From: Patescibacteria group bacterium
GTDB lineage: Bacteria > Patescibacteriota > Microgenomatia > Levybacterales > UBA12049
Assembly: GCA_038062115.1 (NCBI GenBank)
Contig: JBBTXS010000004.1
Location: 69,009 to 133,008 of the forward strand
Reading direction: 5' to 3'
Length of the DNA: 64,000 bases
Shown in pieces: positions 38,270-63,895 of the stretch (its first letter is position 1; each line of letters opens with the position of its first letter). The position numbers and the translations under genes were made by a program. A model generated the notes under the pieces. The model saw only the letters and a program-made list of their open reading frames with translations. It had not been told where the DNA came from and ran no database searches.

Positions 38270-39472
38270 ATGTTGATTGGTATTGACGGCAACGAGGCTA
38301 ATGTAGAAAAAAGAGTTGGGGTTGGAGAATACTCCTTTGAACTACTTCGGCAGCTCAAAGAATCTAGAATTCAGAATCTAGAATTCAGAATCTATTTAAA
38401 AAGAAAACCTCAAGATGATTTTCCAAAAGAATCCACAAACTGGCAATATCGAATTATCGGACCGCGCAAACTGTGGACGCAGATAGGATTACCATTTGAT
38501 TTGTATTTCCATAAACCAAAACCCGATGTGTTTTTTACACCCACCCATTATGCTCCACGCTTTTCTCCTATTTCAACTGTAATTTCAGTAATGGATTTAT
38601 CCTACATCCATTTTCCTGAGATGTTTAAACCTTCAGATTTGTATCAGCTTAAGAATTGGACGGGATATTCAGTGAGAAATGCAAAAAAGATCTTAACTAT
38701 CAGCAGAGCCAGTAAAGATGATATAATCAAATTGCATCAAGTGTTAGAAGAGAAGGTGGTAGTTACTTATCCAGGAATAAAAGTCAAAAGTCAAATGTCT
38801 CCGCCAAAGGCGGATCAGCCTCTGGCTGAAAAATCCAAAATGCAAAGTTCAAAAGTGCTTAAAGAAAAATATAAGATTGAAGGGGATTATATTTTGTTTG
38901 TGGGGACGCTGCAGCCGAGGAAGAATATTGTGAGGCTTATTGAAGCATTCTCAAGGATTATACACCCCCGAGGTGTGCGTGCCGTCGCAAACCACCTCGG
39001 GGGTGGCCGAATGGACTCCCCCGAGGTGAACTATTTGGTCATTGTTGGTAAAAAGGGATGGTTATACGGGGAGATATTTGAGGCTCCTAAGAAGTTTGGA
39101 GTAGAAGATAGAGTTAAGTTTTTAGATTTTGTTCCCGATGAAGATCTTCCTCTTTTTTATCAAAATGCTCTTTGCTTTGTTTTGCCAAGTCTATATGAAG
39201 GGTTTGGTTTGCCGGTTTTGGAAGCAATGCAATACGGCTGCCCTGTAATTACAAGTAATGTCAGTAGTCTTCCCGAGGCAGGAGGAGATGCGGCACTTTA
39301 TGTAAATCCGCTGGATGTTGAGGACATTAAAAAAAATTTAGAATTCATAATTCAGAGTTCAGAATTACGTAAAAAGCTTATCGAAAAAGGATATAAACAA
39401 GTTAAAAAGTTTAGTTGGGAGAAAACAGCGAGAGAAACTTTGAGCGTATTGGAGGACGTGGCGAGAACTTGA
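38270..39472 (+). CDS. glycosyltransferase family 4 carrying four in-frame repeat-derived segments
   Basis: [42 protein letters not shown]. Paralog of 47727 and 59477. Confidence 0.85.
38363..38390. repeat. 7-nt array TCTAGAA TTCAGAA x2 (perfect 14-mer x2), in-frame
   Basis: Read directly. Translates as [10 protein letters not shown]. Only this reading frame of the array lacks stops. Confidence 0.85.
38780..38857. repeat. 78-nt composite: AAAGTCA heptamers, twin GC hairpins TCCGCCaaaGGCGGA + TCAGCCtctGGCTGA, then AAAATSC-type heptamers; in-frame (26 codons)
   Basis: Read directly. Translates as [26 protein letters not shown] in the interdomain linker. Confidence 0.8.
38963..39031. repeat. 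GC-rich 69-nt element, copy E1, in-frame (23 codons)
   Basis: CCCCCGAGGTG (38965-38975) and an identical copy (39018-39028) are both perfectly complementary to CACCTCGGGGG (38993-39003). Translates as [23 protein letters not shown]. Confidence 0.8.
39337..39364. repeat. 7-nt array TTTAGAA TTCATAA TTCAGAG TTCAGAA, in-frame
   Basis: Read directly. Translates as [11 protein letters not shown] near the C-terminus of the GT4. Confidence 0.75.
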
Positions 39473-39475
39473 ATT

Positions 39476-40042
39476 ATGAATAATGAATTAGAAATTAAGG
39501 TTAAAAACAGAATCAAGACAATTTTGCTGGAATTTGCAGTTATGAAATTGCATTTTGTTGGTTTTGTGCCTTCACATCATTTCCGTAGATTTTTCTATAG
39601 ATTAGCTGGAATAAAAATTGGTAAAGGATCAACACTCCATACAGGTACAAGATTTTATAATCCATCTAATATAGAAATTGGGCAAGATTCTATTATTGGT
39701 GAGGGAACTGTTTTAGATGGGAGAGATAAACTAATAATTGGCAATCATGTTGATATTGCCTCAGAAGTTATGATTTATAACTCCGAACACGATGTGCAAA
39801 GCGATGATTTTCGTGCAGTTACTGCACCGGTAATAATTGAAGACTATGTTTTTATCGGTCCTCGTGCAATCATTTTGCCAGGGGTTAAAATCGGTAAAGG
39901 AGCAGTAATTGGGGCTGGGGCTGTGGTTACAAAGGCTGTTAAGAGTTTCGCAATTGTTGGAGGTGTGCCTGCACAAAAGATTGGAGAAAGAAAGATTAAA
40001 GATCTTAAGTATAAATTAGGAAGAGCGGCGTGGTTTAGATAA
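39476..40042 (+). CDS. hexapeptide-repeat (LbH) sugar O-acetyltransferase, WcaF/maltose-acetyltransferase-like
   Basis: IGKGSTLHTGTRF..IGQDSIIGEGTVL..IGNHVDIASEV..IEDYVFIGPRAIILPGVKIGKGAVIGAGAVV hexapeptide repeats. Confidence 0.8.
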   Translation: MNNELEIKVKNRIKTILLEFAVMKLHFVGFVPSHHFRRFFYRLAGIKIGKGSTLHTGTRFYNPSNIEIGQDSIIGEGTVLDGRDKLIIGNHVDIASEVMIYNSEHDVQSDDFRAVTAPVIIEDYVFIGPRAIILPGVKIGKGAVIGAGAVVTKAVKSFAIVGGVPAQKIGERKIKDLKYKLGRAAWFR

Positions 40043-40046
40043 GGAT

Positions 40047-40141
40047 GATTGTTGGATTGCTCAATTGTTTCATTGTTACCTCACCCTAACCCTCTCCTAG
40101 AAGGAGAGGGAACAATTTAGCAATTTAACAATGTAGCAATT
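40047..40141. repeat. intergenic composite palindrome: 8-nt-periodic NATTGYTN arm, GC hairpin CCCTCTCCTagaAGGAGAGGG (40090-40110), inverted ARCAATKT arm
   Basis: Read directly. It fills the whole spacer between the acetyltransferase stop and the GT2 start codon. Confidence 0.8.
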
Positions 40142-41035
40142 ATGACATTTCTATCAATAGTTATTCTTTCCTATAACACAAAAGACTTAACGCTTTCTTG
40201 CTTGCAATCGTTGATAGAACAATACAGAAAGGAGTTAAAAAGTGGGACGGTTGAGATTATTGTTGTTGATAATGCGTCAACTGATGGCTCGGTAGAAAGT
40301 ATTAAGTATTATGTATTAAGTAGTAAGTATAAAGACGTTAGATTAAGGGTTATAGAAAATGACGAGAATTTGGGGTTTGCTAAGGGTTGTAATATAGGGG
40401 CAAAAAAATCAAAAGGGAAATATATTCTTTTTCTAAATTCGGATACACAAGTGCTAGACAAGGGTTTTTTGAAAATGATAGGGTTTTTAGATAGTAATCA
40501 AAAAGTTGGAATTTTGGGAGGAAGGCTTTTAAATCCAGACAATTCACCCCAACCATCTGCTGGAAAATTTTACAATCTTTTTAATTTATTTTTAATGCTT
40601 ATAGGTAGCGAAAGATTTGGATTACTCCGTAAAAGTCCCAAAAATATTGAAAGAGTTGATTGGGTAAGCGGAGCATGTTTGATGATAGGGAAAAGCGTAT
40701 TTGATCAACTAAAGGGATTTGATGAAAATTTCTTTATGTATATCGAAGATATGGAACTGTGCTTTAGAGCAAACAAACTTGGTTTTTTAACTTATTTTTA
40801 TCCAGATATCAAGATAATACATAAAGAACTTGGAAGTAGCAATCGGTCTTTTGCTATAATACACATCTATAAAGGGCTTTTGTATTTTTACTCCAAGCAC
40901 AAAGGTTACTTTCAATATATTATTGCCAAAGTAATGCTAGAAGTGAAAGCTAAAGTCGGAATTGTTGTCGGTTTCCTTATTGGCAATTCTTCCTTAAAGA
41001 AAACTTACATTGAGGCAATAAAATTTAAGATATGA
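40142..41035 (+). CDS. glycosyltransferase family 2
   Basis: LSIVILSYNTKDLT, VVDNASTDGS, LGFAKGCN, LFLNSDT, FFMYIEDMELCFR. Confidence 0.85.
   Translation: MTFLSIVILSYNTKDLTLSCLQSLIEQYRKELKSGTVEIIVVDNASTDGSVESIKYYVLSSKYKDVRLRVIENDENLGFAKGCNIGAKKSKGKYILFLNSDTQVLDKGFLKMIGFLDSNQKVGILGGRLLNPDNSPQPSAGKFYNLFNLFLMLIGSERFGLLRKSPKNIERVDWVSGACLMIGKSVFDQLKGFDENFFMYIEDMELCFRANKLGFLTYFYPDIKIIHKELGSSNRSFAIIHIYKGLLYFYSKHKGYFQYIIAKVMLEVKAKVGIVVGFLIGNSSLKKTYIEAIKFKI
40299..40333. repeat. 7-nt array GTATTAA GTATTAT GTATTAA GTAGTAA GTATAAA, in-frame
   Basis: Read directly. Translates as SIKYYVLSSKYK directly after the DNASTDGS motif. Confidence 0.85.
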
Positions 41036-44000
41036 AAATACTCAGATTTGTTTGGAACAACATTTTATTTTTTATCTCACTTTTTTTGCTTGTCTTTGTT
41101 CCTCTTTACCCAAAATTGCCAATTTTGGATGTACAAAATACGTGGGTTTATGTCCGAGTAGAAGACTTTATTATTACATTTGTAATTCTTATATGGATTG
41201 TTTTGTTTTTGTTTAAAAAAATAACGATCAATACTCCGTTAACCCTACCTATTCTATTATTTTGGATTACTGGCGGAGTATCTCTTCTTCATGCGGTTTT
41301 GGTTATTTTTCCGACCATTGCCAATGTGTTTCCTAATGTTGCATTTCTAAGTTTTTTGCGAAGAATAGAATATGTCTTTCTATTTTTTGTTGCATTTGCT
41401 GGAATGAGGGATAAACGACTCATATATTATATTATTTACGCACTGCCAATTATCCTTCTTGTTGTAGTTGGCTATGGTTTTGGTCAAAAATTCTTTGGAT
41501 TTCCAGCGTTTTTGACAATGAATGAAGAGTTTGCGAAAGGAGTACCAATTCAGCTTTCGCAGTTGTCCAGGGTTCCTTCTACGTTTGCCGGCCATTACGA
41601 TTTAGCAGCGTATTTGGTTTTACTGATTCCAATTCTTGTAAGTTTAGCATTTGGTTTTAAAAATTGGCTTATAAAGATTTTTTTGTTGGGAGTTTCTTCT
41701 TTAGGATTTGTTCTGCTTTTGGAGACGGTATCTCGAGTTTCATTCTCCGTTCTTTTACTTGCTTTGGTAATGCTGTTAATTTTTCAGAAAAAAAGATTGG
41801 TTATTATTTCTCTTTTTGTGCTGACAGTTATATTATTAATTTTATCTCCAAGTCTTTTGCAGCGTTTCGGAAGTACAGTTTCGGAAATTGATGTTTTGGT
41901 GGACGCAAAGACAGGAAGAGCAATAGGTCATGTTACAGAAGTTCCATCTTTGTACTTTGAGGATAAAATTGTTTTGAGAGATTTTGCTCAAAGTGAACAA
42001 AATCCAAAACTTGCCACATCCTCCGCAATTGTTCCAAAGCTTCTTATTCCATCGCCCGCTGTACTTGTTACAGAACCAAACGAGTCCACAGGCGAAAATC
42101 TGCCGCAAGGAACAAGCTATATAAATCTTCCGCTTTCTCCAGTTGTTAAAAAAGTTAATCAATATTTTTATCAAAAAGCAAAAGAAAACAATCCCGAGCA
42201 ATCAACAAAGATTTATATGCTGTATGGAGATTTTCTTATAAAAAAAGCCAAAGCTTACGATCTCTCTTTTACTACAAGATTTCAAGGAGAGTGGCCAAAA
42301 ACCATTACCGCGTTTATGAGAAATATTTTTTTAGGAAGTGGCTATGGGTCTGTTAGTCTTGCTGTTGACAATAATTATCTTAGAATTCTTGGAGAAACCG
42401 GGATTCTTGGGCTTGTTTCATTTCTTTCAATATTTATAGTTGCAGGAATATTCATTAAAAAAATATTACCAGTTGTTGCGTCCCCAGTTGTTAGAAGTTT
42501 TGTTTTAGGATTTGTTGCTGGAACATTTGGACTTTTTCTAAACGCCATCCTAATAGATGTTTTTGAGGCATCGAAGATCGCTTTTTCTTATTGGCTTTTG
42601 ATGGGGGTAACTCTTGGAATTCTAAACTTACACAAAAGTGTAAATGTAGATATTTATAAAGAATTTAAAAACTTGATAACTTCTACCTATGCGATTGTTA
42701 TTTATCTTTTTATTTTAACTATATCTTTATACTTCTCTCTCTCCAATTATTATTTTACAGGCGATGATTTTACATGGTTTAGATGGGTCTCTGATTGTTG
42801 TAATGGTCTTGCTAACAACGGAATTGTTGATTATTTTACCAACGCGAATGGATTTTTCTACAGGCCAGGTACAAAAGTGTATTTTTTTCTTATGCATTCG
42901 GCTTTTTGGCTTAACCAAACAATGTATCATTTGGTATCCCTAATTTTGCATTTTTCCGTTGCGGCTCTTTTGTTCTTGATCTTAAAAAGAATATTAAAGA
43001 ATTATTTTTTGTCTGCGGCAGCGGCTATTGTTTTTCTTATTTTAAGTGGGCATCATGAAGCAATTTTTTGGATTTCCGCAACAGGCTTTCTTTTTAATGC
43101 TTTTTTTGCCCTTTTGAGTCTTCTTTTCTTTATTTACTGGAAAGAGAATAAAAAAAATATATACCTTTTAATTGCTTTTGTTGCAGTTTTTTTAAGCCTG
43201 CTGTTTCACGAGCTGGGCGTTATAGCGCCTTTACTTATAATCCTTTATGATTCTGTTTTTGGGGAAAAATTCAGCCTAAGCAATTTATATAAAAAATCCT
43301 ATTATTATATTTTGATTTTTCCGATAATCCCTTATTTGATTTTACGCTTTATCGCAAAAAGCCATTGGTTTAGCGGAGATTATAGTTATAACATTTTTAA
43401 TCTTCCTTATAATTTTATTGGGAATACAATGGGTTATTTGGGACTTTCTGTTTTTGGGCCTTTGTTTTTAACAATATATAATAGCATCAGAAATTTTTCT
43501 AAAGGAAATTTAGGGATAGCATTATTAGCATCAATAGTAATAATTTTCGCAGCTTTCTTTCTATGGAAATGGCTTATGAAAGCTTTGACAAAGGATGATA
43601 GCAGGATTGTTGTTTTTGGAGTCCTGTTTTTTGCAATTTCCCTGTTACCGTTTTTGGGACTGGGAACAATAACTTCCCGCTATAGTTATCTTTCCTCGGT
43701 TGGACTTGCAATTCTTTTAGCATTTTTTATTAAAAAACTATATAAGTATTTGATATTGAGCAACGAGAAGTACATTGCTGTTTCGATAGTTACTATAATA
43801 GTAATAATATTTTTAGCTAATCAGGTTTTTCAATTACAAAAAATAAATTCAGATTGGAAAACAGCAGGCGAGAAATCTAAAAGATTTGTTGTATCTCTTG
43901 AAGAAATGTACGAAAGAGAATGGAAAAATGACTCTCTAAAATTTTATTTTGTTGATGTTCCCATACGCAATGGAGAAGCATGGATATTTCCAGTAGGGTT

Positions 44001-44187
44001 ACCAGATGCTGTGTGGCTGCTTTTTCGCAATAAAAATATTGATATTTACCAATTACGTTCGCTTAAAGAGGTGATAGGCTCTGTAAAAGATCCGCGGACA
44101 GAAAAGGTGTTTGAATTTGACGAACAGGGAGGGGTTGTTGAAAGAAAAAAAGCGCAAGATGGGAGTGTTATCCCCATAGATAAATGA
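41032..44187 (+). CDS. fusion protein: Wzy_C/O-antigen-ligase-like N-terminal half + GT-C (PMT/TMTC-like) C-terminal half
   Basis: 1051 aa. The N-half has VDNNYLRILGETGILGLVSF (Wzy_C signature region). The C-half has YFTGDDFTWFRW, HHEAIFWISA and FHELGVIAPLL, typical of PMT_2/DUF1736-type mannosyltransferase-like proteins. Confidence 0.55.
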   Translation: MKILRFVWNNILFFISLFLLVFVPLYPKLPILDVQNTWVYVRVEDFIITFVILIWIVLFLFKKITINTPLTLPILLFWITGGVSLLHAVLVIFPTIANVFPNVAFLSFLRRIEYVFLFFVAFAGMRDKRLIYYIIYALPIILLVVVGYGFGQKFFGFPAFLTMNEEFAKGVPIQLSQLSRVPSTFAGHYDLAAYLVLLIPILVSLAFGFKNWLIKIFLLGVSSLGFVLLLETVSRVSFSVLLLALVMLLIFQKKRLVIISLFVLTVILLILSPSLLQRFGSTVSEIDVLVDAKTGRAIGHVTEVPSLYFEDKIVLRDFAQSEQNPKLATSSAIVPKLLIPSPAVLVTEPNESTGENLPQGTSYINLPLSPVVKKVNQYFYQKAKENNPEQSTKIYMLYGDFLIKKAKAYDLSFTTRFQGEWPKTITAFMRNIFLGSGYGSVSLAVDNNYLRILGETGILGLVSFLSIFIVAGIFIKKILPVVASPVVRSFVLGFVAGTFGLFLNAILIDVFEASKIAFSYWLLMGVTLGILNLHKSVNVDIYKEFKNLITSTYAIVIYLFILTISLYFSLSNYYFTGDDFTWFRWVSDCCNGLANNGIVDYFTNANGFFYRPGTKVYFFLMHSAFWLNQTMYHLVSLILHFSVAALLFLILKRILKNYFLSAAAAIVFLILSGHHEAIFWISATGFLFNAFFALLSLLFFIYWKENKKNIYLLIAFVAVFLSLLFHELGVIAPLLIILYDSVFGEKFSLSNLYKKSYYYILIFPIIPYLILRFIAKSHWFSGDYSYNIFNLPYNFIGNTMGYLGLSVFGPLFLTIYNSIRNFSKGNLGIALLASIVIIFAAFFLWKWLMKALTKDDSRIVVFGVLFFAISLLPFLGLGTITSRYSYLSSVGLAILLAFFIKKLYKYLILSNEKYIAVSIVTIIVIIFLANQVFQLQKINSDWKTAGEKSKRFVVSLEEMYEREWKNDSLKFYFVDVPIRNGEAWIFPVGLPDAVWLLFRNKNIDIYQLRSLKEVIGSVKDPRTEKVFEFDEQGGVVERKKAQDGSVIPIDK

Positions 44188-45662
44188 AAAAGATTGAACT
44201 TTTGATATTATTGCTTATTTTAATTGGCGGTTTTTTGGTAAGGCTTTATAGATTTAATAATCCAATTGCAGATTGGCATTCTTGGCGACAGGCAGATACT
44301 TCGGCAGTTTCTAGAAATTTTGTTAAATTTGGGTACGATATCTTGTTTCCCCGCTTTGACGATCTGTCAAATGGCGTATCTCTTTTAGATAATCCTAAGG
44401 GGTATCGTTTTGTAGAGTTTCCTTTCTATAATATTTTGCAAGCTGGTTTTTATCAGATATTCAATCATTTTACAATAGAGCAATGGGGAAGGTTAGTCTC
44501 AATAATTTCTTCTTTAATTGCTGCTGTTTTTCTTTATTTATTGGTAAAAAAACATGTTTCAACACGTGCTGGTTTAATTGCAGCCTTTTTTTATACATTT
44601 GTTCCTTATAACATTTATTATGGAAGAGCCATTATTCCTGATTCATTAATGGTTATGAGTTTTCTTGCTGGTTTGTATTTTTTTGACCAATATCTTGATG
44701 AAAAGGTGAATATTAAGCAATACACTTATTACATCCTAGCAATATTTCTTGTTGCATTATCCCTTCTTATTAAGCCTTTTGTTTTGTTTTTCTTTTTAGC
44801 CTTTTTATATTTAGTATTTATGAAGTTTGGTTTGAAAGGCTTTAAGAAACCAGAGATATGGGTATTTTTTGTTCTAGCTTCTTTACCGTTTTTTCTCTGG
44901 AGAATGTGGATGGAAAACTTCCCAGAAGGAATTCCCAGAAATGATTGGTTATATAACTGGAACAGCATCCGTTTTAAAGGCTCATTTTACTGGTGGATTT
45001 TTGCCGAAAGAATTTCCAAGATGATTCTTGGGTATTGGGGTTTGCCTTTTGTTATTTTAGGAATACTTTTTAAACCAGGAAATCGCGAAAAGTTGCTATT
45101 CTTTACCTTTCTGATATCTTCGCTTATTTATGTTCACGTATTTGCAACCGGTAACGTTCAGCATGATTATTATCAAATTCTTATTACCCCAACTCTTGCT
45201 ATATTTTTTGCAAAAGGAGTTGATGGTGCATTAAAAGCTTCAGGAGAATATTTTAGCTTATGGACTACAAGAGCAGTTATAGTTATTAACATAGTCTTTA
45301 TGTTAATGTTTGGATGGTATGTGATTCGCGATTTTTACGGAGTTCAGCACCCCGCAATAATAGAAGCAGGCAAAGCAGTAGATGAGCTTACGCCAAAAAA
45401 TGCTAAAGTTATTGCGGTTTATAGCGGAGATACGACATTTTTATATCACACTAATCGTCAAGGATGGCCTGTGGTGGAAAGAAGTTTTAGGCAATTTGTA
45501 AATGTAGGGGCAACGCATATTGCATTTGCCAATCCAACAGAAGAAGAACTAAATCTTGCAACTTTATTCGAGCCATTAAAAATAACAGACACGTATGCTA
45601 TTTTTGACCTTAATAAGCCAACCGTCGAGGGCTTGAAGGAATTAAAGAAAAAAGAGAAATGA
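44184..45662 (+). CDS. GT-C glycosyltransferase, ArnT/family 39-like
   Basis: 492 aa, polytopic. The first-loop motif IADWHSWRQADTSAVSRNF is typical of ArnT-like enzymes. ATGA overlap with the upstream gene. Confidence 0.6.
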   Translation: MKKIELLILLLILIGGFLVRLYRFNNPIADWHSWRQADTSAVSRNFVKFGYDILFPRFDDLSNGVSLLDNPKGYRFVEFPFYNILQAGFYQIFNHFTIEQWGRLVSIISSLIAAVFLYLLVKKHVSTRAGLIAAFFYTFVPYNIYYGRAIIPDSLMVMSFLAGLYFFDQYLDEKVNIKQYTYYILAIFLVALSLLIKPFVLFFFLAFLYLVFMKFGLKGFKKPEIWVFFVLASLPFFLWRMWMENFPEGIPRNDWLYNWNSIRFKGSFYWWIFAERISKMILGYWGLPFVILGILFKPGNREKLLFFTFLISSLIYVHVFATGNVQHDYYQILITPTLAIFFAKGVDGALKASGEYFSLWTTRAVIVINIVFMLMFGWYVIRDFYGVQHPAIIEAGKAVDELTPKNAKVIAVYSGDTTFLYHTNRQGWPVVERSFRQFVNVGATHIAFANPTEEELNLATLFEPLKITDTYAIFDLNKPTVEGLKELKKKEK

Positions 45663-46831
45663 GAAAGATATTGTTTCTTACTTATGATTTTCCTTATCCC
45701 GCAAATACCGGGGGCAAGAACAGAGCGTTTAATCTCATAAAGCATGCTAACAAAAACGTAGAGATTCATTTGGCTTCTTTTGTAAGAGATGATTTTAGAA
45801 AAGAATATGAAAAAGAACTAAAAAAAGTAGGAGTTAAGACGATTACGATATTCAAAAGAAGAAAATTAAAAGACATTAGAAATATTAAATTTTTATTTTC
45901 TAAGTCTTCGATCTTTCGACTCCTGTATTATAGAAAAAGCGTTGAAGATTCTATTCTGGATATTGTGAGATCTTTGAAGATAAATGTTGTTCATTTTGAA
46001 TCCTACTACACTTCGTTTTACATTGGGAAAAAGATTAGAGATGTGGGGGCGAAGCAAATATTCGGCACAGAAAACATAGAGCATTTTTTATACAAAGACT
46101 ATGCAAAACACAGCAGTTGGTTGAAGCATTTTATTTTGGATCGCCAAATTAGAAAAATAGAAAATGAAGAGAAGGAATTCTTAAAACTTTCCGATAAAAA
46201 TATTGCTGTAACAGACGATGAGGCAAAGTTTATCCAAAGCATAACTGGTAAAAAATGTAGCATAATTCCAAATGGAGTTGATCTTGATGATTTTACATAT
46301 AATCATCCCTCCAAAAAACTCGCAAACACCCTTCTTTTTATAGGGAATTTTAGTTATTTTCCAAATATTGATGCGATAAATTATTTTTACAACAAAGTTT
46401 TCAAGAAATTGAATGAAAACATAAAACTTTTAATAATCGGAAAAAATGCAGAAAAACTGGATATGTCAAAAGACAGTAGAATTGAAACAATATCTTTTGT
46501 TGAAGACATCAAAGAAGCCTACAATAGAGCTGATATCATGGTGTTTCCAGTTAGGGTTGGAGGAGGAACTAATTTTAAGATACTTGAGGCAATGGCTTAT
46601 GGAATTCCAATAATTGCTGATCCTGCAAGAATCGATAGTTTTGGGGTTAAAGATGGACGCGAGATGTTTTTGGCGAAAACGCCTTTAGAATACGAACAAA
46701 AAATAGATTTACTGCTTAAGGATTTTAGCTTAAGAGAGAAGCTCTCAAAAAATGCTAGGAAACTTGTAGAAAAAGGTTATTCATGGAAACCAATTGGAGA
46801 CAACCTTAATGCTATATGGAAAAACATATGA
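45659..46831 (+). CDS. glycosyltransferase family 4
   Basis: ILFLTYDFPYPANTGGKNR, LFIGNFSYFPN, GGGTNFKILEAMAYGIPIIA. Confidence 0.8.
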   Translation: MRKILFLTYDFPYPANTGGKNRAFNLIKHANKNVEIHLASFVRDDFRKEYEKELKKVGVKTITIFKRRKLKDIRNIKFLFSKSSIFRLLYYRKSVEDSILDIVRSLKINVVHFESYYTSFYIGKKIRDVGAKQIFGTENIEHFLYKDYAKHSSWLKHFILDRQIRKIENEEKEFLKLSDKNIAVTDDEAKFIQSITGKKCSIIPNGVDLDDFTYNHPSKKLANTLLFIGNFSYFPNIDAINYFYNKVFKKLNENIKLLIIGKNAEKLDMSKDSRIETISFVEDIKEAYNRADIMVFPVRVGGGTNFKILEAMAYGIPIIADPARIDSFGVKDGREMFLAKTPLEYEQKIDLLLKDFSLREKLSKNARKLVEKGYSWKPIGDNLNAIWKNI

Positions 46832-47730
46832 ATAAAAAAATTGATGTATCAATTGTTGTAGTTACCTACAACTCGTTTGACACCATAAAAGAATGCATTG
46901 ATTCTATTGAAAAAACCGTTAAAAAAAACTCATTTGAAATTGTTGTTGTTGACAATAATTCATCGGATGGATCCGCAGAGGGTATTAAGTATTATGTATC
47001 AAGTATTAAGTATGAGAACGTTAGAATTATTCCAAATAAAAAAAACATAGGGTTTTCGAAGGCCAACAATCAGGGCGTCAAAATTTCACAAAAAAGCCGT
47101 TATGTTTTGTTTTTGAATCCCGATGCAATCGTTTATGAAAACACTATTGATGGGATGGTGGATTTTATGAACAAAACTCCCAACGCGGGAGCGGCAACGT
47201 GTTTTATAGAGCTTAAAAATGGCAGACTTGACGATTCCTGCCACAGAGGGTTTCCTACACCTTGGAGGTCTTTATGTTATTTTATGGGTTTATCAAAGTT
47301 TTTTCCAAAAAGTAAATTTTTTGCAGGGTATAACATGACCTATCTTGGTCTTAATAAAACTCACGAGATAGATGCTCTGGGAGGGTCTTTTATGCTGATA
47401 AGGCGCGAAATAGGCAAAAGATTGGGTTGGTGGGACGAAGACTTTTTCTTTTATGGAGAAGATATAGACTTTTGTTTTAGAATAAAAGAAATAGGGTATA
47501 AAATATATTTTGTACCCGAATATAAAGCGCTTCATTACAAAGGGGTTTCAAGCGGAATAAAAAAAGTTTCGGAGTCAATAAGCAAAGCAACAAAAGAAAC
47601 AAAACTTTTTGCAACAAAACATAGATTTAACGCGATGCGAATTTTCTACAAGAAACATTATGAAAAAAAGTATCCAAAAATTGTTACGTGGCTTGTTTAT
47701 GGGGCAATTTGGGCTAAAGAACATTTATGA
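46828..47730 (+). CDS. glycosyltransferase family 2
   Basis: VSIVVVTYNSFDT, VVDNNSSDGS, IGFSKANN, LFLNPDA, FFFYGEDIDFCFR. ATG 46828 (ATGA overlap) is preferred over the track start 46816. Confidence 0.85.
   Translation: MNKKIDVSIVVVTYNSFDTIKECIDSIEKTVKKNSFEIVVVDNNSSDGSAEGIKYYVSSIKYENVRIIPNKKNIGFSKANNQGVKISQKSRYVLFLNPDAIVYENTIDGMVDFMNKTPNAGAATCFIELKNGRLDDSCHRGFPTPWRSLCYFMGLSKFFPKSKFFAGYNMTYLGLNKTHEIDALGGSFMLIRREIGKRLGWWDEDFFFYGEDIDFCFRIKEIGYKIYFVPEYKALHYKGVSSGIKKVSESISKATKETKLFATKHRFNAMRIFYKKHYEKKYPKIVTWLVYGAIWAKEHL
46982..47016. repeat. 7-nt array GTATTAA GTATTAT GTATCAA GTATTAA GTATGAG, in-frame
   Basis: Read directly. Translates as GIKYYVSSIKYE. 37 of 42 nt are identical to 40299-40340 by my count. 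Confidence 0.85.
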
Positions 47731-48869
47731 AAATAGGAATTGATGCTAGGCTTTGGAATGAGTCGGGAGTTGGAAAATACACTAGGAATCTTGTTGAACA
47801 GCTTCAGATAATTGATCGCAAGAATGAGTACATGTTGTTTGTTTTAAGTCAAGATAGAAAAAAGATTCTGAATCAAGTTCAGAATGACAATTTTAGCATA
47901 GTAAATGCAGACATAAGGTGGCATACACTGGAAGAGCAGATGAAGTTTTCATCGATAATTAATAAAGAAGATTTGGATTTAATGCACTTTACTTATCCTT
48001 CGGTTCCTATTTTTTACAATAAGCCTTTTATTGTTACAATTCATGATTTAATTTTGCATCATTTTCCGACAGGAGAAGCCTCAACTTTGGCTTTGCCTTT
48101 ATATTATTTAAAGCACTTCGCATACAAATTAGTGATTTTGCAAGCAGCAAAAAAGGCAAAAAGAATTATTGCAGTATCAAAGGCTACAAAAAAGGAGATT
48201 ATTGACCATCTTAGAGTACCAGAAAAAAAAGTAGTGGTAATATATGAAGGGGTAAGTAACGAGATTACAAATCCAAAATCTCAAATTCCAAATAAATCCC
48301 AAAATCCTAAATACAAAATACTTAATACTAAATACTTTTTGTACGTTGGGAATGCATATCCGCACAAGAACCTAGAGCGAATGCTTATGGCATTCGCAAG
48401 TATTAAGTATAGAGTATTAAGTATAAAGTTGGTTTTTGTTGGCAGAGAGGATTATTTTTACAAAAGATTAAAAGAAAAGGTAAAAAATATGGGTTTAGGA
48501 AAATCAGTGAATTTTTTAGGAGAAGTTAGCGATGATGAATTGATCTGTCTTTATAGAGATGCGAGAGCATTAGTTATTCCATCCTTGATGGAAGGGTTTG
48601 GGCTTCCAGCGTTGGAAGCCATGGCAAATAAATGTTTAGTTTTAGCATCAGATATTCCTTCGTTGAAAGAGGTCTGCGGAAATGCGGCAATTTATTTTGA
48701 TCCTTATGGTATTGATGATATATCAAAAAAAATGATAGAGGTTTACTCTAATGACATAAATCATTATAGTAGCAATATCAACAAAGGTTTTGAAAAAACA
48801 AAAATATTTTCTTGGGAGAAAATGACAAGAGAAACTCTAAAGGTATACGAAAGCTGCGTTGGCGGCTGA
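47727..48869 (+). CDS. glycosyltransferase family 4 carrying at least three in-frame repeat-derived segments
   Basis: MKIGIDARLWNESGVGKYT, LYVGNAYPHKN, PSLMEGFGLPALEAMANKCLVLASDIPSLKE. Confidence 0.85.
   Translation: MKIGIDARLWNESGVGKYTRNLVEQLQIIDRKNEYMLFVLSQDRKKILNQVQNDNFSIVNADIRWHTLEEQMKFSSIINKEDLDLMHFTYPSVPIFYNKPFIVTIHDLILHHFPTGEASTLALPLYYLKHFAYKLVILQAAKKAKRIIAVSKATKKEIIDHLRVPEKKVVVIYEGVSNEITNPKSQIPNKSQNPKYKILNTKYFLYVGNAYPHKNLERMLMAFASIKYRVLSIKLVFVGREDYFYKRLKEKVKNMGLGKSVNFLGEVSDDELICLYRDARALVIPSLMEGFGLPALEAMANKCLVLASDIPSLKEVCGNAAIYFDPYGIDDISKKMIEVYSNDINHYSSNINKGFEKTKIFSWEKMTRETLKVYESCVGG
47875..47902. repeat. half-unit of the GTCATT/ATGACAATT palindromic family (hairpin ATTCTGAA-tcaag-TTCAGAAT + GACAATT end), in-frame
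   Basis: Read directly. Translates as ILNQVQNDNF. Confidence 0.7.
48267..48334. repeat. composite repeat: AAATCY heptamers + AAATAAATCCCAAAATCC + four reverse-orientation GTATTAA-family units (TAAATAC AAAATAC TTAATAC TAAATAC); in-frame
   Basis: Read directly. Translates as NPKSQIPNKSQNPKYKILNTKY in the interdomain linker. Confidence 0.8.
48400..48427. repeat. 7-nt array GTATTAA GTATAGA GTATTAA GTATAAA, in-frame
   Basis: Read directly. Translates as SIKYRVLSIK, at the same alignment position as the GC-rich element E1 in the 38270 paralog. Confidence 0.85.
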
Positions 48870-48874
48870 GCCGT

Positions 48875-48955
48875 ACCGCAGGTGTAATCGTATCTACACC
48901 TCGGATGGTGGCAGCCCTGAGCGAAGTCGAAGGGCATGACTCCTCCGAGGTGGAC
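48875..48955. repeat. GC-rich element, copy E2 (intergenic, chimeric)
   Basis: CCGCAGGTGTA..TACACCTCGG hairpin, then GGTGG, then AGCCCTGAGCGAAGTCGAAGGGC, then GACTCCTCCGAGGTGGAC. Starts 6 nt after the GT4 stop. Confidence 0.7.
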
Positions 48956-49183
48956 ATCAGATTGGGAATGCTATTGTGGTTTGGTAGTCGTACTTGGATT
49001 TAGTGTTTAGCGGACCGTATTTATATGTTTCAAAGACCAAGCCTCTAAGTTTTATCTTCTGGCTTTCTATATACGAAAACAGCTTTTGGTAAATGAGAAT
49101 TAAATATTTATATGGACCATTATAGTTAAATGCTAAGACTTTGGTTTTGGGGTAAGGTTTGAAATAAAAATCATTATGTTGGT

Positions 49184-49254
49184 ATTCACCTTGGAGGAGC
49201 CGAGGTCGTTGCCTCGTCACCTCCGAGGTGTTGCGGAGCGATTCTTCGAAGGTG
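49184..49254. repeat. GC-rich element, copy E3 (reverse orientation, about 71 nt, degenerate)
   Basis: The reverse complement aligns with 63288-63356 over its whole length (shared ...GAGGCARCGACCTCG.CTCCT.C.AGG.GAA). Confidence 0.7.
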
Positions 49255-49274
49255 GAGCTTAGTATAAAGGTTAT

Positions 49275-49383
49275 GGCTGGGTCATAAATACCCATTTGTC
49301 ATTCCGAGCGAGCGTGAGCGAGTCGAGGAATCTCGTTGAAGGAGATTTCTCGGCAAGCTCGAAATGACAATTGTGACCCAGTC
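49275..49383. mobile_element. MITE-like nested palindromic element flanked by an 11-bp direct repeat
   Basis: Outer inverted repeat GGCTGGGTCA / TGACCCAGTC. Inner GTCATTCCGAG...CTCGAAATGAC (49298-49368). ATAAAGGTTAT occurs at 49264-49274 and again at 49384-49394. Confidence 0.5.
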
Positions 49384-49598
49384 ATAAAGGTTATCTCAAG
49401 AGGCGTATTTTGGGATTATAGGCGTTGTTGAGATAAAAAGTTATCTCAGAGGGTTTACATTTTAGCTTTAATCTTTTTGCTTCTTGCCAAAGAGTTTTTA
49501 TATACTCAGTAATCTTTGCATATTCCCCGTGTCCTACTTTCATACAAAATAGATTGAATGGGCCAAAGTTTTTGGTTTGAAATATGTTCTTTATGCTC

Positions 49599-49636
49599 GT
49601 CATTCTGGCAAGCGAAGAATGAGCGCGTCCAGAATC
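49599..49636. repeat. half-unit of the GTCATT palindromic family (GTCATTCTGG..CCAGAATC)
   Basis: Read directly. Overlaps the putative start of the GyrI-like pseudogene. Confidence 0.55.
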
Positions 49637-49660
49637 TATATCGTTTTGGAAGAAAAATGA

Positions 49661-49885: not shown

Positions 49886-49889
49886 CTGT

Positions 49890-50632: not shown

Positions 50633-51778
50633 ATGAAAATTGCATTGGTGTATGATCGGGTAAATAAGTGGGGAGGGGCAGAGAGAGTGCTTTTGGCATT
50701 GCATGAATTATTTCCAGATGCACCTATTTACACTTCGGTTTACAATCCAATAACTGCATCTTGGGCTAAAACTTTCGATGTTAGAAGTTCATTCTTGCAG
50801 AAATTTCCTTTGGCATCTATAGCTCATGAGTTATATGCGGTCTTGATGCCCATTGCCTTTGAAAGTTTTTCTTTTGACCAATATGATCTTGTAATTTCAG
50901 TTACGAGTGAGGCTGCAAAAGGGATAATAACCAAACCAAAAACAAAGCATATTTGCTATTGTCTAACTCCAACCCGTTATCTTTGGAGTGCTTACGATGA
51001 TTACTTTAGAAATCCCTTATTGCGATTTCTATCAAAACCAGTAGTTTCGTATCTTAGGACTTGGGATAAAATTGCAGCGCAAAGGCCAGATGCGTACGTT
51101 GCAATTTCTCAAGAGGTCAAAAGAAGAATTAAAAAATATTATGGGAGAGAGTCAGTGGTTGTATACCCGCCAGTAGACATCAGTAGTATGTATCATGTAT
51201 CAAGTATTAAGTATAAAAAAAATGCAAATGAAATACATAATACAAACTACATACTACATAATACTGTCGATTACTTCCTCATCGTCTCTCGGCTTGTTCC
51301 ATACAAACGAATTGATATTGCGATTAGAGCATTTAATAAGCTTAGACTTCCATTAAAAATTATTGGCGTAGGGTCACAAGAAAAGTATCTTAAAAGCATC
51401 AGTAGCCCAACTATAGAATTCCTTGGCAACTTGACTGAAGATGAGTTAGTAAGCTATTATAAGGGATGTCGTGCTTTAATTTTTGTAGGTGTTGAAGATT
51501 TTGGTCTTACTGTTTTGGAGGCACAGAGTTTTGGAAAACCCGTGATTGCGTTTCGCGGAGGCGGTACACTGGAGACTATAAAAGAAGGAAAAACTGGTGA
51601 GTTTTTTAGTCAACAAAATCCAAAATCACTTACAGATGTGCTTAAAAGATTCGATGAAAGAAAATATAAAAGTACTGACTGCATAGAGAATGCTAAAAAG
51701 TTTTCGTTTGAAAGATTTAAAGAAAAGCTTATGGATGTCGTTGCGAGGAGTTTAGCGACGAAGCAATCTCAAATTTGA
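50633..51778 (+). CDS. glycosyltransferase family 4
   Basis: MKIALVYDRVNKWGGAERVL, FLIVSRLVPYKR, VGVEDFGLTVLEAQSFGKPVIA. Start trimmed from 50579 to ATG 50633. The last 14 codons and the stop lie inside a palindromic repeat. Confidence 0.85.
   Translation: MKIALVYDRVNKWGGAERVLLALHELFPDAPIYTSVYNPITASWAKTFDVRSSFLQKFPLASIAHELYAVLMPIAFESFSFDQYDLVISVTSEAAKGIITKPKTKHICYCLTPTRYLWSAYDDYFRNPLLRFLSKPVVSYLRTWDKIAAQRPDAYVAISQEVKRRIKKYYGRESVVVYPPVDISSMYHVSSIKYKKNANEIHNTNYILHNTVDYFLIVSRLVPYKRIDIAIRAFNKLRLPLKIIGVGSQEKYLKSISSPTIEFLGNLTEDELVSYYKGCRALIFVGVEDFGLTVLEAQSFGKPVIAFRGGGTLETIKEGKTGEFFSQQNPKSLTDVLKRFDERKYKSTDCIENAKKFSFERFKEKLMDVVARSLATKQSQI
51183..51265. repeat. composite repeat: five GTATYAA-family units, A-rich spacer, four TACAWAM units; in-frame
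   Basis: Read directly. Translates as SSMYHVSSIKYKKNANEIHNTNYILHNT. Same architecture and orientation as 20416..20483. Confidence 0.85.
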
Positions 51779-51822
51779 TGGGGATTGCTACGCCCTTCGA
51801 CAAGCTCAGGGCTCGCAATGAC
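51737..51822. repeat. GTCGTTGCGAGG...CTCGCAATGAC palindromic element spanning a gene junction
   Basis: Read directly. The left arm encodes VARSLATKQSQI. The TGA stop (51776-51778) lies in the central loop. The right arm ends 10 nt before the manC ATG. Confidence 0.8.
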
Positions 51823-51832
51823 AATTAGACGT

Positions 51833-52915: not shown

Positions 52916-52918
52916 CCT

Positions 52919-55518: not shown

Positions 55519-55528
55519 GTTCTTGGTT

Positions 55529-56296: not shown

Positions 56297-56299
56297 AAG

Positions 56300-56746: not shown

Positions 56747-56893
56747 CCAATAAAAAAGACCGGGTATTCTGCTATTAACAGAACCGAGGGCAACTTAACT
56801 CAGGACTGGTTACCTGGAGGTCGGAAGCCATCCCAGCCTTCTATATTTAGAACATATCACGAAAGAACTAAAAAGTCAATAAGATAGGTAAAA

Positions 56894-57011
56894 ATGTAAC
56901 ATTTTACAACCCTTGACATAAACTGTCATTCTGAACTTAGTTCAGAATCTCATTAGATGCTAAAATGAATTCAGCATGACAATTTGCGTCAGTAACGGTG
57001 AAATGTTACGT
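56894..57011. repeat. nested palindromic element: outer ~31-nt imperfect inverted repeat enclosing GTCATTCTGAACttaGTTCAGAATCTC + GATGCT..AGCATGAC (56925-56980)
   Basis: Read directly. Ends 11 nt before the wzt ATG. The track ORF 56989..57228 (-) is an artefact. Confidence 0.75.
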
Positions 57012-57022
57012 AAAAATTTGCT

Positions 57023-61728: not shown

Positions 61729-61790
61729 AAATTCTTTTTGTCACCCCTCCTCCATATCTGCATAACGAGCTGCAAAGGAGTAATGTATAA
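61725..61790 (+). pseudogene. 21-codon remnant duplicating the 5' end of the GT4 gene at 62672
   Basis: MKILFVTPPPYLHNELQRSNV then a stop, compared with MKILFVIPPPYLPNRLHRNRSF at 62672. 33 of the first 37 nt are identical. It keeps the ATGA overlap with the upstream GT4. Confidence 0.6.
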
Positions 61791-61802
61791 TCAAAATAGA
61801 TT

Positions 61803-61808
61803 TATAAT
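61803..61808 (+). promoter_or_regulatory. TATAAT box 5 nt upstream of the DUF3800 start codon (leaderless configuration)
   Basis: TATAAT at 61803-61808, ATG at 61814, no SD. Confidence 0.3.
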
Positions 61809-61813
61809 GCATT

Positions 61814-62482
61814 ATGTACATCTATCTTGATGAAAGTGGCGATTTAAGAAGAAGTGATACTAAATATTTTGTTGTTGGAACGTATACTGTAGGTGATCCT
61901 AAACGTATAGCAAAGGCTTTTCGAAAATGGCAAAAAAGTAAATTTCCCAAGAAGTTAAAAGGTCAAACTGAGGTGAAATTTAATGACTCACATATCACCG
62001 ATAAACTACGACTTAAAACGATAAAATATTTAGCAAAACAGGATATTAGAATCTTTTATACATTCCTTAAATTAACAAATATTCCTGAAAAATACCGCAA
62101 AGAAGGAAAAGTATATGAAACAGGTCTCCTTTATACTGAGATTGTTGGATATACTCTGGAGTTATATTTGCCTCTTGCCGATAAAGATTTTCGAGTGTAT
62201 AGAGATCCACGAAGTTTAAAGGGAATACGTGTAGAAAAGTTTAATAAAATGGTAAAAGCACACCTTCTCCCTTTACTTCCTATAGATGTTTTATTTGAAA
62301 TTCAAGCTCCTGATTCGACAATTACACCTCTTATTCAAGTTGCTGATTGGGTAAGCGGAGCATTAGCAAGATACCATGAGGGAAAACTTTTAGGACAAGA
62401 GTTATACAATGGACTTAAAAAGAATATTATTCAAGAGAAAGAGCTCTTCTCAGATTATTGGATAAAGAAGTGGGAAAAATAA
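61814..62482 (+). CDS. DUF3800 family protein
   Basis: MYIYLDESGDL N-terminal motif and C-terminal DSTITPLIQVADWVSGAL motif are both characteristic of DUF3800. Confidence 0.7.
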   Translation: MYIYLDESGDLRRSDTKYFVVGTYTVGDPKRIAKAFRKWQKSKFPKKLKGQTEVKFNDSHITDKLRLKTIKYLAKQDIRIFYTFLKLTNIPEKYRKEGKVYETGLLYTEIVGYTLELYLPLADKDFRVYRDPRSLKGIRVEKFNKMVKAHLLPLLPIDVLFEIQAPDSTITPLIQVADWVSGALARYHEGKLLGQELYNGLKKNIIQEKELFSDYWIKKWEK

Positions 62483-62483
62483 A

Positions 62484-62509
62484 AAGAGGTCTGCATCCGC
62501 AGTCCTCTT
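62484..62509. terminator. GC-rich hairpin AAGAGGtCTGCatccGCAGtCCTCTT immediately after the DUF3800 stop
   Basis: Read directly. An A-run lies upstream and only a weak T-run downstream, so it is a better intrinsic terminator for the minus strand than for the plus strand. Confidence 0.3.
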
Positions 62510-62671
62510 AAAATTTGGAGTGGCGGTGCTATCCGTGATTGTCCTAGACTCAGTAGCGAGTGTTCCACTCGGGAGCATCTAGGCACTAGATAGCTTATTA
62601 TTACCAACTCCGAATAAAACTATATCATTTCCTAGAGTGTTTTGCAATAGGCAAATTATTCATATTTTCAA

Positions 62672-63895
62672 ATGAAAATTCTTTTTGTCATCCCTCCGCC
62701 ATATTTACCCAATAGACTTCATAGAAATAGATCATTTGATTTAATCAAGATTCTATCAAAAAAGCATGAGGTGCATCTTTTTTGTCTGACAACCCAAAAA
62801 GAAACACCTAAAGAGTTTAGTCAAATAAAAAAAGTCTGTAAATCCATAAACATTATTTATCTAAACCCGCTAAGAGCTTTGTTAAGTTGCTCCCTTTTTC
62901 CATACCTACCAGCAGAAGTAGCATTTTGTCGATCAAATCTTGCAAAAAAAACAATCGCGAATATTATCAAAAATAAAAAAATTGATCTTATCTATGCAAA
63001 GCGGTTAAGAAGCGCCATATTTATTCCAGAATTAAATATCCCAATTATTTTGGATACCACAGATGCGATGAGTATGTTTTATAACCGATTGTACAAAGGT
63101 TCAAATTATCCAAAAAAAATAATTTATAAGTTGGAGGAAGTAAAGTATAGGATTTTTGAGAAGAAAACTATGGAAAAGTTTAGAGACTGGATAGTTTGTT
63201 CTCCTGTAGATCAAAAATACTTACAAAAATTTGGAAGGGATGTTAATATTCATCTAGTTCCGAATCCGGTAGATGCATATTACTTTTCACCTCCGAGGAG
63301 TCCTTCGGCCACCTCGAAGGTGGCGAGGCAGCGACCTCGACTCCTTCGAGGCGAACACTTTAATTCTTTGTTGTTTCGTGGGCTTATGGATAAACCAGTT
63401 AATATTGATGCCTGTTTATTTTTTGCAAAAGAAATTTTGCCAAAGATTAAAAAAGATATACACGACGTAAAACTTTTTATTGTTGGTCCCAAGCCCCACT
63501 CCTCAATAAAAAAATTAGCAAACGAAAAAGACATTTTTGTAACTGGTTTTGTAAAGGATGTAAGAGAATTTATTAGTAGAACAAGTATATCGATCTGTCC
63601 TGTTCGGATTGGATCGGGGACAAGATACAAAATATTACAAGCTTGGGCGATAGGGCAACCAGTTATTTCAACAACTCTTGGCGCCGAAGGACTTATGTAT
63701 AAAAAAGACAAAAATATTGCGATAGCAGACAGCCCCAAAGAATTTGCAGAACAAATAATCAATCTATTAAAAAATAAAGAACATTATGATACACTTGCAA
63801 AAAATGGACGCAAAACCATTGTTGCAGAATATAGCTTCAAAGTTATTGCCCAAAAACTTGAAACAGTAATTCAGAATGTCAAAATTGCTAAATAA
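62672..63895 (+). CDS. glycosyltransferase family 4 carrying a GC-rich in-frame element
   Basis: MKILFVIPPPYLPNR, GSGTRYKILQAWAIGQPVISTTLGAEG. Confidence 0.75.
   Translation: MKILFVIPPPYLPNRLHRNRSFDLIKILSKKHEVHLFCLTTQKETPKEFSQIKKVCKSINIIYLNPLRALLSCSLFPYLPAEVAFCRSNLAKKTIANIIKNKKIDLIYAKRLRSAIFIPELNIPIILDTTDAMSMFYNRLYKGSNYPKKIIYKLEEVKYRIFEKKTMEKFRDWIVCSPVDQKYLQKFGRDVNIHLVPNPVDAYYFSPPRSPSATSKVARQRPRLLRGEHFNSLLFRGLMDKPVNIDACLFFAKEILPKIKKDIHDVKLFIVGPKPHSSIKKLANEKDIFVTGFVKDVREFISRTSISICPVRIGSGTRYKILQAWAIGQPVISTTLGAEGLMYKKDKNIAIADSPKEFAEQIINLLKNKEHYDTLAKNGRKTIVAEYSFKVIAQKLETVIQNVKIAK
63288..63356. repeat. GC-rich 69-nt element, copy E4, in-frame
   Basis: CCTCCGAGG (63290-63298), CCTCGAAGG (63312-63320) and CCTTCGAGG (63343-63351), plus the CGAGGcagcgaCCTCG hairpin. 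Translates as (S)PPRSPSATSKVARQRPRLLRGEH. Confidence 0.8.

Follow-up and report, generated by a model that had tools for sequence, protein, structure and literature searches.

The question raised by this locus is why four short G+C-rich segments interrupt a stretch of DNA that is otherwise A+T-rich. The window, that is, the whole stretch of 64,000 nt that was analysed (positions 69,009 to 133,008 of contig JBBTXS010000004.1, from a Patescibacteria group bacterium of the Levybacterales), had been the subject of a preliminary description. In it the four segments, here named E1 to E4, were taken for copies of an element of about 69 nt, mobile or recombinogenic and tolerated only where it preserves the reading frame. 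Inspection of the sequence verified E1 (38963-39031), E2 (48875-48955), E3 (49184-49254, reverse orientation) and E4 (63288-63356) at the coordinates given there, and our results indicate that they are very probably members of a dispersed family of short, G+C-rich, imperfect-hairpin repeats of Microgenomates, within the Candidate Phyla Radiation (CPR). The proposal of a mobile element tolerated when the frame is kept was likewise supported by the further copies, the empty sites and the use of all six phases described below.

The motifs shared by the four segments were hardly expected by chance. For the consensus 3' end, GACTCCTCCGAGGTGAAC, five matches with at most 3 mismatches were found in the window where 0.00 are expected (one of them, the fifth, is the reverse-strand left end of E4), and for the palindromic core, CACCTCSGAGGTG, nine with at most 2 mismatches where 0.16 are expected. 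In addition, a covariance model built from copies of other genomes, with which the window was searched with filters off, recovered exactly four loci and none besides at E<1, with scores of 59.4, 55.8, 51.6 and 46.7 bits for E2, E1, E4 and E3, respectively. All four are located in G+C-rich islands of 86-132 nt with 56-58% G+C, the hairpin units proper reaching 60-67% against a window background of about 33%, which confirms the contrast previously noted, and all have one common orientation relative to the host transcript. A CRISPR array was discarded, as the copies are 10-14 kb apart and inside genes. Rfam 15 gave no family for E1-E4 at the gathering threshold, and none for 48800-49400 when the limit was relaxed to E<=10; the window contains no tRNA genes.

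Alignment of 69 copies established the order of the unit: CACCT, a 4-nt core, an optional bulged T or C, GG, TGG, a variable tip, GACT, CC, the complementary core, AGGTG and usually RA. The basic unit is an imperfect hairpin of 34-60 nt, CACCT-N4-(bulged T)-GG.TGG, variable tip, GACT.CC-N4'-AGGTG-RA, in which the basal stem consists of constant outer CACCT/AGGTG arms, a variable complementary core of 4 bp and a constant inner GG/CC. The bulged T or C, a T.T mismatch and a G.A mismatch are frequent irregularities of this stem. The shortest units, of 34 nt, have the tip GCTTT, and longer ones carry the recurring tip modules CCGAATG, CCCGAAGGG, CGAGGCAACGACCTCG or CAGGCTGAGCGAAGCGAAGCCATG; the variable tip is built from a few recurring sub-hairpins, which are swapped between copies. 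What had been regarded as internal filler in E1 and E2 does differ between copies, but it corresponds to these exchanged modules. The right arm is followed by GRA and then by mixed bases, and the left flank shows a weak A-R-A preference. One subset of copies has the flanks AAGCSNTAAAGA...GAGGAATCA in common; an element extending beyond the unit was nevertheless rejected, because conservation of the flanks ends about 10 nt outward.

The length of about 69 nt proposed in the preliminary description is not that of the basic unit, but it does hold for a composite form of 69-72 nt (E1, E3 and E4), in which two units of opposite orientation share a palindromic middle arm. E4 is the clearest case in the window. 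Two overlapping covariance matches on opposite strands, a minus-strand unit at 63284-63326 (35.4 bits, E=1.7e-7) and a plus-strand unit at 63306-63357 (51.6 bits), have in common the palindromic arm CCACCTCGAAGGTGG at 63309-63323, and therefore the element is an inverted pair with a shared arm. This arrangement also accounts for its 18-nt terminal inverted repeats, formed by the outer arms, which have 2 mismatches to each consensus and both of which fit the 3'-end consensus. The inverted repeat begins at 63285 and not at 63288, so that E4 spans 63285-63356 on the plus strand; its RNA fold z-scores were -5.0 and -5.5. The same architecture was found in L123, L131, L134 and L187, and units also occur as arrays.

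In E1 (plus strand, 69 nt, codon-aligned), the upstream arm CACCCCCGAGGTG at 38963-38975 is a decayed remnant of an inverted unit, which can still be recognised in the orthologue of L213 (covariance match 10678-10722, minus strand). The intact plus unit of E1, at 38993-39028, reads CACCTCGGGGGTGG-CCGAATG-GACTCCCCCGAGGTG followed by AAC (covariance match 38989-39032, 55.8 bits, E=5.5e-13). E2 is a single unit with a degenerate upstream arm, located on the plus strand at 48866-48955 between convergent genes. The arm lies at about 48866-48896 and the canonical unit at 48897-48952 (covariance match 48893-48956, 59.4 bits, E=5.8e-14), starting 28 nt past the stop codon (48867-48869) of the preceding GT4 glycosyltransferase gene, although the G+C-rich tract begins ahead of that codon, at about 48853. 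The intergenic copy first placed at 48875-48955 was thus confirmed with other limits. E2 carries a nested tip module, CAGCCCTGAGCGAAGTCGAAGGGCATG, also present in L175 and L117 and known here from other Levybacteria and Curtissbacteria. Its possible role as an intrinsic terminator was rejected, since no T run follows the hairpin and no terminator-like site was found at E2 or E3. Finally, E3 (49184-49254) is a composite element that lies on the minus strand and is degenerate, with a unit at 49187-49230, an upstream arm at about 49240-49254 and a covariance match at 49183-49234 (minus strand, 46.7 bits) that has one broken pair.

Conservation of the fold was studied in the copies collected from other genomes. 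In 150 matches aligned with the model, 99.4% of the stem cells were paired and 68 showed changes on both sides, against 8.8 in shuffled alignments and a value reached by 0 of 500 shuffles; slid controls gave only about 50-60% pairing. As this alignment is biased by the search pattern, we isolated 36 units which the pattern could not have picked. In these, each of four stem positions occurs as two or three kinds of Watson-Crick pair (for instance, C-G in 26, G-C in 5 and T-A in 4), and pairing is kept in no fewer than 35 of the 36 units. In an additional scan of metagenomes both 4-nt cores were left unspecified. Among the matches listed, 127 of 129 came from contigs of 30-51% G+C, and in 105 of these 127 the right core was the exact reverse complement of the left one, for which the chance expectation is 1/256; at least 13 distinct cores were present. 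The outer and inner bases of the stem are constant, and the core is free but complementary. The compensatory substitutions which the preliminary description proposed to look for are present.

A pattern scan of one genome per species yielded at least 117 loci. About 107 of the matches listed were in contigs of 31-52% G+C, nearly all of them from Levy-, Davies-, Gottesman-, Curtiss-, Woese-, Shapiro- or Chisholmbacteria, and about 16, apparently due to chance, came from contigs of Actinobacteria type with more than 65% G+C. With the covariance model, 712 kb of those low-G+C loci yielded 141 non-overlapping units, and the metagenomes contributed at least 127 further matches. The additional copies which the preliminary description suggested searching for thus exist, more than 100 of them in the pattern scan of genomes alone, and in Microgenomates genomes and groundwater metagenomes together they number in the hundreds. 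The hairpin family has multiplied to many non-homologous sites, and identical units at different loci of one genome are a sign of recent activity.

Concerning the range of the family, no evidence of it outside CPR bacteria was seen in the genome, metagenome, viral, phage and plasmid data that were scanned. The 94 matches of a loose two-arm pattern in viral contigs were all in contigs of at least 45% G+C, most of them above 55%, and were attributed to chance; blastn against phage and plasmid collections gave nothing meaningful. Two apparent exceptions were rejected. A title naming Gammaproteobacteria is apparently mislabelled, the contig set CAYUJR01 being syntenic with the window and encoding a 70% identical GT4 protein, and a Bathyarchaeia label appears to be wrong, as its contigs encode bacterial DnaX and CysS. 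More generally, many third-party annotation (TPA) metagenome-assembled genomes titled 'uncultured Gammaproteobacteria' (binchicken, SRP co-assemblies; L096-L212, L213), as well as one titled 'Bathyarchaeia', have Microgenomates-like or bacterial genes, and these labels look unreliable. The named homologues of the E1 host protein belong to Candidatus Levybacteria or Microgenomates, and the protein itself is encoded on a contig from Hainich groundwater; the window was accordingly assigned to a Levybacteria genome of that aquifer. Full-text searches of the literature brought up no account of elements like these in CPR or Microgenomates.

Most units lie inside open reading frames (ORFs): 114 of 140 (81%) in the genome loci, where the coding fraction is 0.88, and 96 of 127 among the metagenome matches listed, with a coding fraction of 0.866. 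Intragenic copies use all six phases and keep the frame of the host. In 87% of the six frames the units contain no stop codon, against 70% in shuffled sequences; intragenic copies, having an open frame, are therefore presumably translated, probably as additional surface loops, as far as their sequence indicates. The hosts include GatB (with four units), NadE, NadD, PurL, PcrA/UvrD, the polyprenyl synthase IspA and HMG-CoA reductase. Sense copies outnumber antisense ones (73:41, p=0.0035, in the genome loci; 59:37 among the metagenome matches listed), and some copies are placed 7-10 nt upstream of start codons. A fixed unit length was rejected as the cause of in-frame survival, as the core lengths are distributed as 66, 44 and 30 among the three classes modulo 3. 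The copies land almost regardless of genes and are retained where the frame is preserved.

Orthologous sites were found empty, filled or occupied by several units. Among 120 aligned orthologues of the E1 host, most have a loop of about 5-8 residues between LIEAFSRI and LVIVGKKGW instead of the 25 residues of the window protein, and the E1 peptide is carried only by the query, P0001, P0002 and P0004. For the E4 host 41 orthologues were aligned, the majority with the insert-free sequence YFSFV-PKLE-YHNALLFRGL, and close relatives have from one to four units in array at this site, as seen in the alignment, the DNA and the model matches. Similarly, some homologues of the E3 host are proteins of 78 aa without the element, and others have hairpin-encoded peptides. 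The preliminary description had considered that its proposal would fall if the genome held no further copies, or if GT4 orthologues of distant taxa carried the segment as ordinary coding sequence; given the further copies and the insert-free orthologues of both GT4 hosts, neither objection holds.

Where the units are retained, their sequence behaves differently from that of the host gene. Compared with L214, the plus unit of E1 is identical in 39 of 39 positions, while the remaining gene is 74.4% identical and its third positions 53.5%. Compared with L213 it is identical in 35 of 39, and two of the four differences constitute a compensatory change from T-A to C-G, mirrored in the upstream arm. 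The upstream part of E1, by contrast, is only 57-62% identical across orthologous sites. Compensatory changes were also observed in the orthologous pairs L118/L190 and L177-L099/L185, which makes three sites in all, and other orthologous sites differ in the tip or in core plus tip (L114 vs L124). From the identity, the compensatory changes and the replacement of tips and cores it follows that resident copies are either constrained at the nucleotide level or repeatedly overwritten or re-inserted. Such a strong conservation leaves room for a function.

The best reading of these data is that the family is a non-autonomous, structure-dependent mobile or converting hairpin, its mobility being suggested by the distribution and the empty sites, that is, by comparison of sequences. 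A trans-acting, structure-specific activity would copy the unit at the DNA level by reading a folded single strand. It would recognise the constant positions, the bulge and the mismatches and be indifferent to the sequence of the core. By analogy, the likeliest candidates would be enzymes of the HUH type such as those of REP/RAYT (repetitive extragenic palindromes and their associated tyrosine transposases) or of insertion sequences (IS) of the IS200/IS605 type, which leave no target duplication; templated conversion between copies could be an alternative to copying by an enzyme. Resident copies might attract more units, and the tips might be exchanged or take up nested hairpins. The complementary stems could be maintained by selection on the fold or, with no selection needed, by intrastrand template-switch correction of quasi-palindromes. 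Target duplications of at least 4 nt were present in 0 of 140 units, the 2-nt flanks being identical in 38 against 27.7 expected, and no parent IS with unit-like ends was seen in the sampled hairpin loci.

Several observations weigh against a mobile or converting hairpin. The difference between empty and filled alleles goes beyond a clean insertion, so that the exact ends are undefined. Presence/absence polymorphism at the strain level was not seen for E1-E3 when the window was compared with a second assembly of its population (L001, ENA ERZ1292624), which is 99.88% identical to 32180-49477 with zero differences inside the three copies. Passive selfish DNA would not stay as conserved as the plus unit of E1, and orientation is biased 73:41 towards the sense strand. 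Furthermore, the 69 ORFs beside 37 intergenic copies comprise 90 Pfam families, of which the 25 commonest include no transposase, and phmmer detected no Y1/RAYT-like ORF in about 800 kb of hairpin neighbourhoods, with query sequences that were approximate.

Some of these facts speak for a functional cis-element kept in place by selection, either as an mRNA structure (acting on elongation, RNA stability or initiation) or as a DNA site for a CPR-specific protein, with mobility explaining only its arrival. The 39/39 identity of the plus unit of E1 next to a gene which has diverged, the decay of its upstream arm but not of the unit itself, the compensatory double changes at three orthologous sites, the sense bias in both data sets and the copies located 7-10 nt upstream of start codons all agree with this explanation. 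We consider it improbable, however, because antisense copies are 36-39% of the intragenic ones, the six phases are used in unrelated hosts with no fixed place in the gene, and the element is missing from most orthologues. In addition, L114 and L124 differ in core and tip at an orthologous site, which looks like turnover, E3 and E4 are decaying in the window, and there is neither an Rfam match, even at E<=10, nor a terminator signature. The arms of the unit, GGAGGTG and CACCTC, are, as we presume from their sequence, Shine-Dalgarno-like and anti-Shine-Dalgarno-like (16S 3' end), respectively, a likeness which belongs to the mRNA version of this explanation and also to a combination of both ideas. 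In the latter, the hairpin might be the substrate of an undescribed system of CPR that reads structure and copies or converts single-stranded DNA, and be preserved intact at orthologous sites in essential genes. Its stem might also act on the mRNA, masking an internal ribosome-binding sequence or pacing translation between domains, and so have been co-opted as a general coding-region signal. We hold this as a tentative and rather improbable proposal.

A classical MITE (miniature inverted-repeat transposable element), moved by cut-and-paste by the DDE transposase of a parent IS through its terminal inverted repeats (TIRs) and with target-site duplication (TSD), is very improbable. It would suit the composite forms, which have 15-18 nt terminal inverted repeats, are short and encode no enzyme, and a true MITE with an 11-bp duplication adjoins E3, so such elements occur in this genome. 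However, none of the 140 units has a target duplication of at least 4 nt, the 34-nt single units are complete hairpins and not a body flanked by repeats, and the apparent TIRs are accounted for by two inverted units sharing an arm. Neither a parent IS nor a transposase is nearby in the sampled loci, and a variable, perfectly complementary core is not predicted by a transposase which binds a sequence. Ordinary coding sequence, that is, a conserved peptide motif or a low-complexity linker of paralogous glycosyltransferases, could be imagined since two copies are in paralogous GT4 genes and the peptides of E3 (TSEVTRQRPRLLQGE) and E4 (TSKVARQRPRLLRGE), which are as previously described, are similar. 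Yet E1 and E4 occupy different positions of the GT4 fold in different phases, unrelated proteins use the same DNA in six phases, most orthologues have no such segment, and one window copy is intergenic. An assembly artefact is equally contradicted by the presence of the family in many independent assemblies from different sites, and we give practically no credit to either of these two explanations.

Comparison with known systems showed partial likenesses. REP sequences and bacterial interspersed mosaic elements (BIMEs) are imperfect G+C-rich hairpins of 20-40 nt, extragenic by definition and associated with RAYT transposases (TnpA_REP, HUH Y1). Our units resemble them in having constant positions beside a stem kept by structure, in clusters of alternating orientation, in high copy number and in lacking target duplication; they differ in that 76-81% of them are inside ORFs, and neither a GTAG-type 5' tetranucleotide nor a unit-flanked RAYT gene was found in the sampled DNA. 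Palindrome-associated transposable elements (PATEs), derived from IS200/IS605, move by 'peel and paste' single-strand transposition; their two hairpins, left and right, are distinct, and a specific tetranucleotide marks the target at the left flank. Bulged imperfect hairpins, lack of target duplication and an orientation bias possibly reflecting strand-specific insertion are common points, but in our family one hairpin makes up the entire unit, and to its left only the weak A-R-A preference is seen. The attC sites of integrons flank gene cassettes next to an integrase and have RYYYAAC/GTTRRRY boxes; to our knowledge they are not found inside genes. They share with our family an identity that resides in the folded single strand, extrahelical bases and conserved ends that enclose a variable but complementary interior, although no cassettes, integrase or RYYYAAC/GTTRRRY boxes were seen with these units.

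In their behaviour, the units are closer to the Rickettsia palindromic elements (RPEs), summarised as repeats of about 100-150 bp, confined to Rickettsia, inserted in-frame in genes and with no known mobilising enzyme (PMC10969869, summarising Ogata et al. 2000). In both cases palindromic repeats are in-frame in many unrelated housekeeping genes of a reduced genome, they add peptide segments compatible with the protein fold (here judged from open frames), and no mobiliser is known. Compared by description only, the units share the in-frame coding insertion of the RPEs and differ from RPE-1 to RPE-10 in size and host genus, since they measure 34-60 nt (69-72 nt for composites) and are G+C-rich in an A+T-rich Microgenomates genome. 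They also have a variable complementary 4-bp core, exchangeable tips, inverted-pair and array forms and a strong conservation at orthologous sites. Bacterial MITEs which may be intragenic, such as ERIC, QMITE1 of Coxiella and BOX, are mostly intergenic, longer and usually A+T-rich, with TIR and TSD (PMC10969869). Occasional in-frame fusions with host ORFs and stable stem-loops bring them near to our units, but in-frame insertion is exceptional there and the rule here. With respect to MITEs in the TIR/DDE sense, terminal inverted repeats appear here in the composite form only and target-site duplication is lacking. Overall, the family matches RPEs in behaviour and REP/BIME in form, and departs from REPs in not being extragenic, from RPEs in size and host and from MITEs in the absence of target duplication.

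The genes that hold or adjoin the window copies were identified by Pfam. The E1 host (38270-39472, plus strand) encodes a GT4 glycosyltransferase of 400 aa with a Glycos_transf_1 domain, of which E1 contributes a peptide of 23 aa. In its AlphaFold2 model (pLDDT 85.7, pTM 0.83) the insert sits in a loop between helix 217-231 and strand 253-260, and residues 237-249 have pLDDT <50, so the E1 peptide is modelled as a disordered loop. The E4 host (62672-63895, plus strand) is a GT4 glycosyltransferase of 407 aa in which the insert follows the motif VPNPVDxxYF; the 69 nt at 63288-63356 are in phase 1 and read SPPRSPSATSKVARQRPRLLRGE. As had been described, E1 and E4 both add 69 nt in-frame to intact GT4 genes in different phases. 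The GT4 gene that abuts E2 by its 3' end (47727-48869, plus strand) has its last codons, SCVGG*, within the G+C-rich tract. E3 is in-frame in an ORF of 112 aa (48957-49295, minus strand), the C-terminal half of a GyrI-like effector-binding gene according to Pfam and to homologues P0241-P0244; the Pfam match (E=6.5e-5) is below the curated cut-off. This gene is split by a frameshift and by a MITE of 109 nt, which agrees with the broken gene reported at first, but E3 itself lies in the part that remains open.

The MITE of 109 nt, at 49275-49383 in minus-strand reading, has 10-nt terminal inverted repeats (GRCTGGGTCA), an 11-bp target duplication (ATAACCTTTAT, at 49264-49274 and 49384-49394) and an internal hairpin, GTCATTYCGAGC...GCTCGGAATGAC. 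The ATG of the E3 host ORF (49295) falls inside it, and the GyrI-like gene seems also to have lost one A from an A run at about 49408-49411. In the E1 host, a second in-frame G+C-rich double hairpin, CCGCCAAAGGCGG ATCAGCCTCTGGCTGA, was located at 38800-38835. It encodes a peptide of 12 aa present only in some orthologues (P0005, P0015, P0102), and residues 174-185 are modelled as disordered (pLDDT <50). The loop that holds E1 carries in other Levybacteria other, unrelated G+C-rich mini-elements, with the peptides CHPELVSGSQSKRDSDLRQND, CHPERSEGSRDSSATPQND, VILERSDRI... and RGPVGSFPPASAP..., and therefore is a permissive hot spot for several coding-compatible families.

Further repeats were observed in the window. 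A hairpin of GTCATTCTGAAC...GTTCAGAATGAC type is present at 47863-47893, in-frame in the GT4 gene adjoining E2 (KILNQVQNDNF), and at 56920-56950, in an intergenic position; both copies are 90% mutually complementary. Another G+C-rich hairpin element, GTCATTGCGAGGAGACCCGCAAAGCGGGGCGACGTGGCAATCCC followed by GAGATTGCTTCGCTTCGCTCGC, lies at 36683-36760, upstream of a fructose-1,6-bisphosphatase (FBPase) gene. This FBPase_3-type gene (36843-37997) has about 42% G+C against the background of 33% and therefore may have been horizontally acquired; in L214 the homologous neighbour is an FBPase of the glpX type instead. The heptamer AGTATTA, with its variants, forms A+T-rich runs at 20415-20455, 40298-40338, 46981-47021, 48392-48432 and 51182-51236, with reverse copies at 19888-19926, 20455-20493 and 48301-48339. 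They are located in several genes of glycosyltransferases and membrane proteins, give in-frame SIKY/KYYV-type peptides and form a separate A+T-rich intragenic family. Finally, a DUF3800-V RNA (Rfam RF02964) was detected on the minus strand at 62516-62612 (49.3 bits, gathering score 37.4), with a DUF3800 protein gene (61814-62482) on one side and the E4 host gene on the other.

The family is of interest because CPR genomes are tiny and thought to be stripped of excess, and yet this hairpin is found in essential genes such as gatB, nadE, nadD, purL and pcrA, with an intragenic density nearly that expected of random insertion. Its inserts inflate the variation in protein length and create spurious "hypothetical" ORFs. 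They may also contribute to contig breaks, since contig Hain_H41_01um_R3_1248 of L001 (31260 nt), which begins at 32180 of the window, would by its length end some 80 nt beyond E4. Conserved ends around a free but complementary core pose a precise problem of recognition for an enzyme or a repair process. The family constitutes a second, independent example of RPE-like behaviour, on a much larger scale and with more diversity, and its hundreds of natural filled, empty and multi-unit alleles provide material on how proteins absorb insertions.

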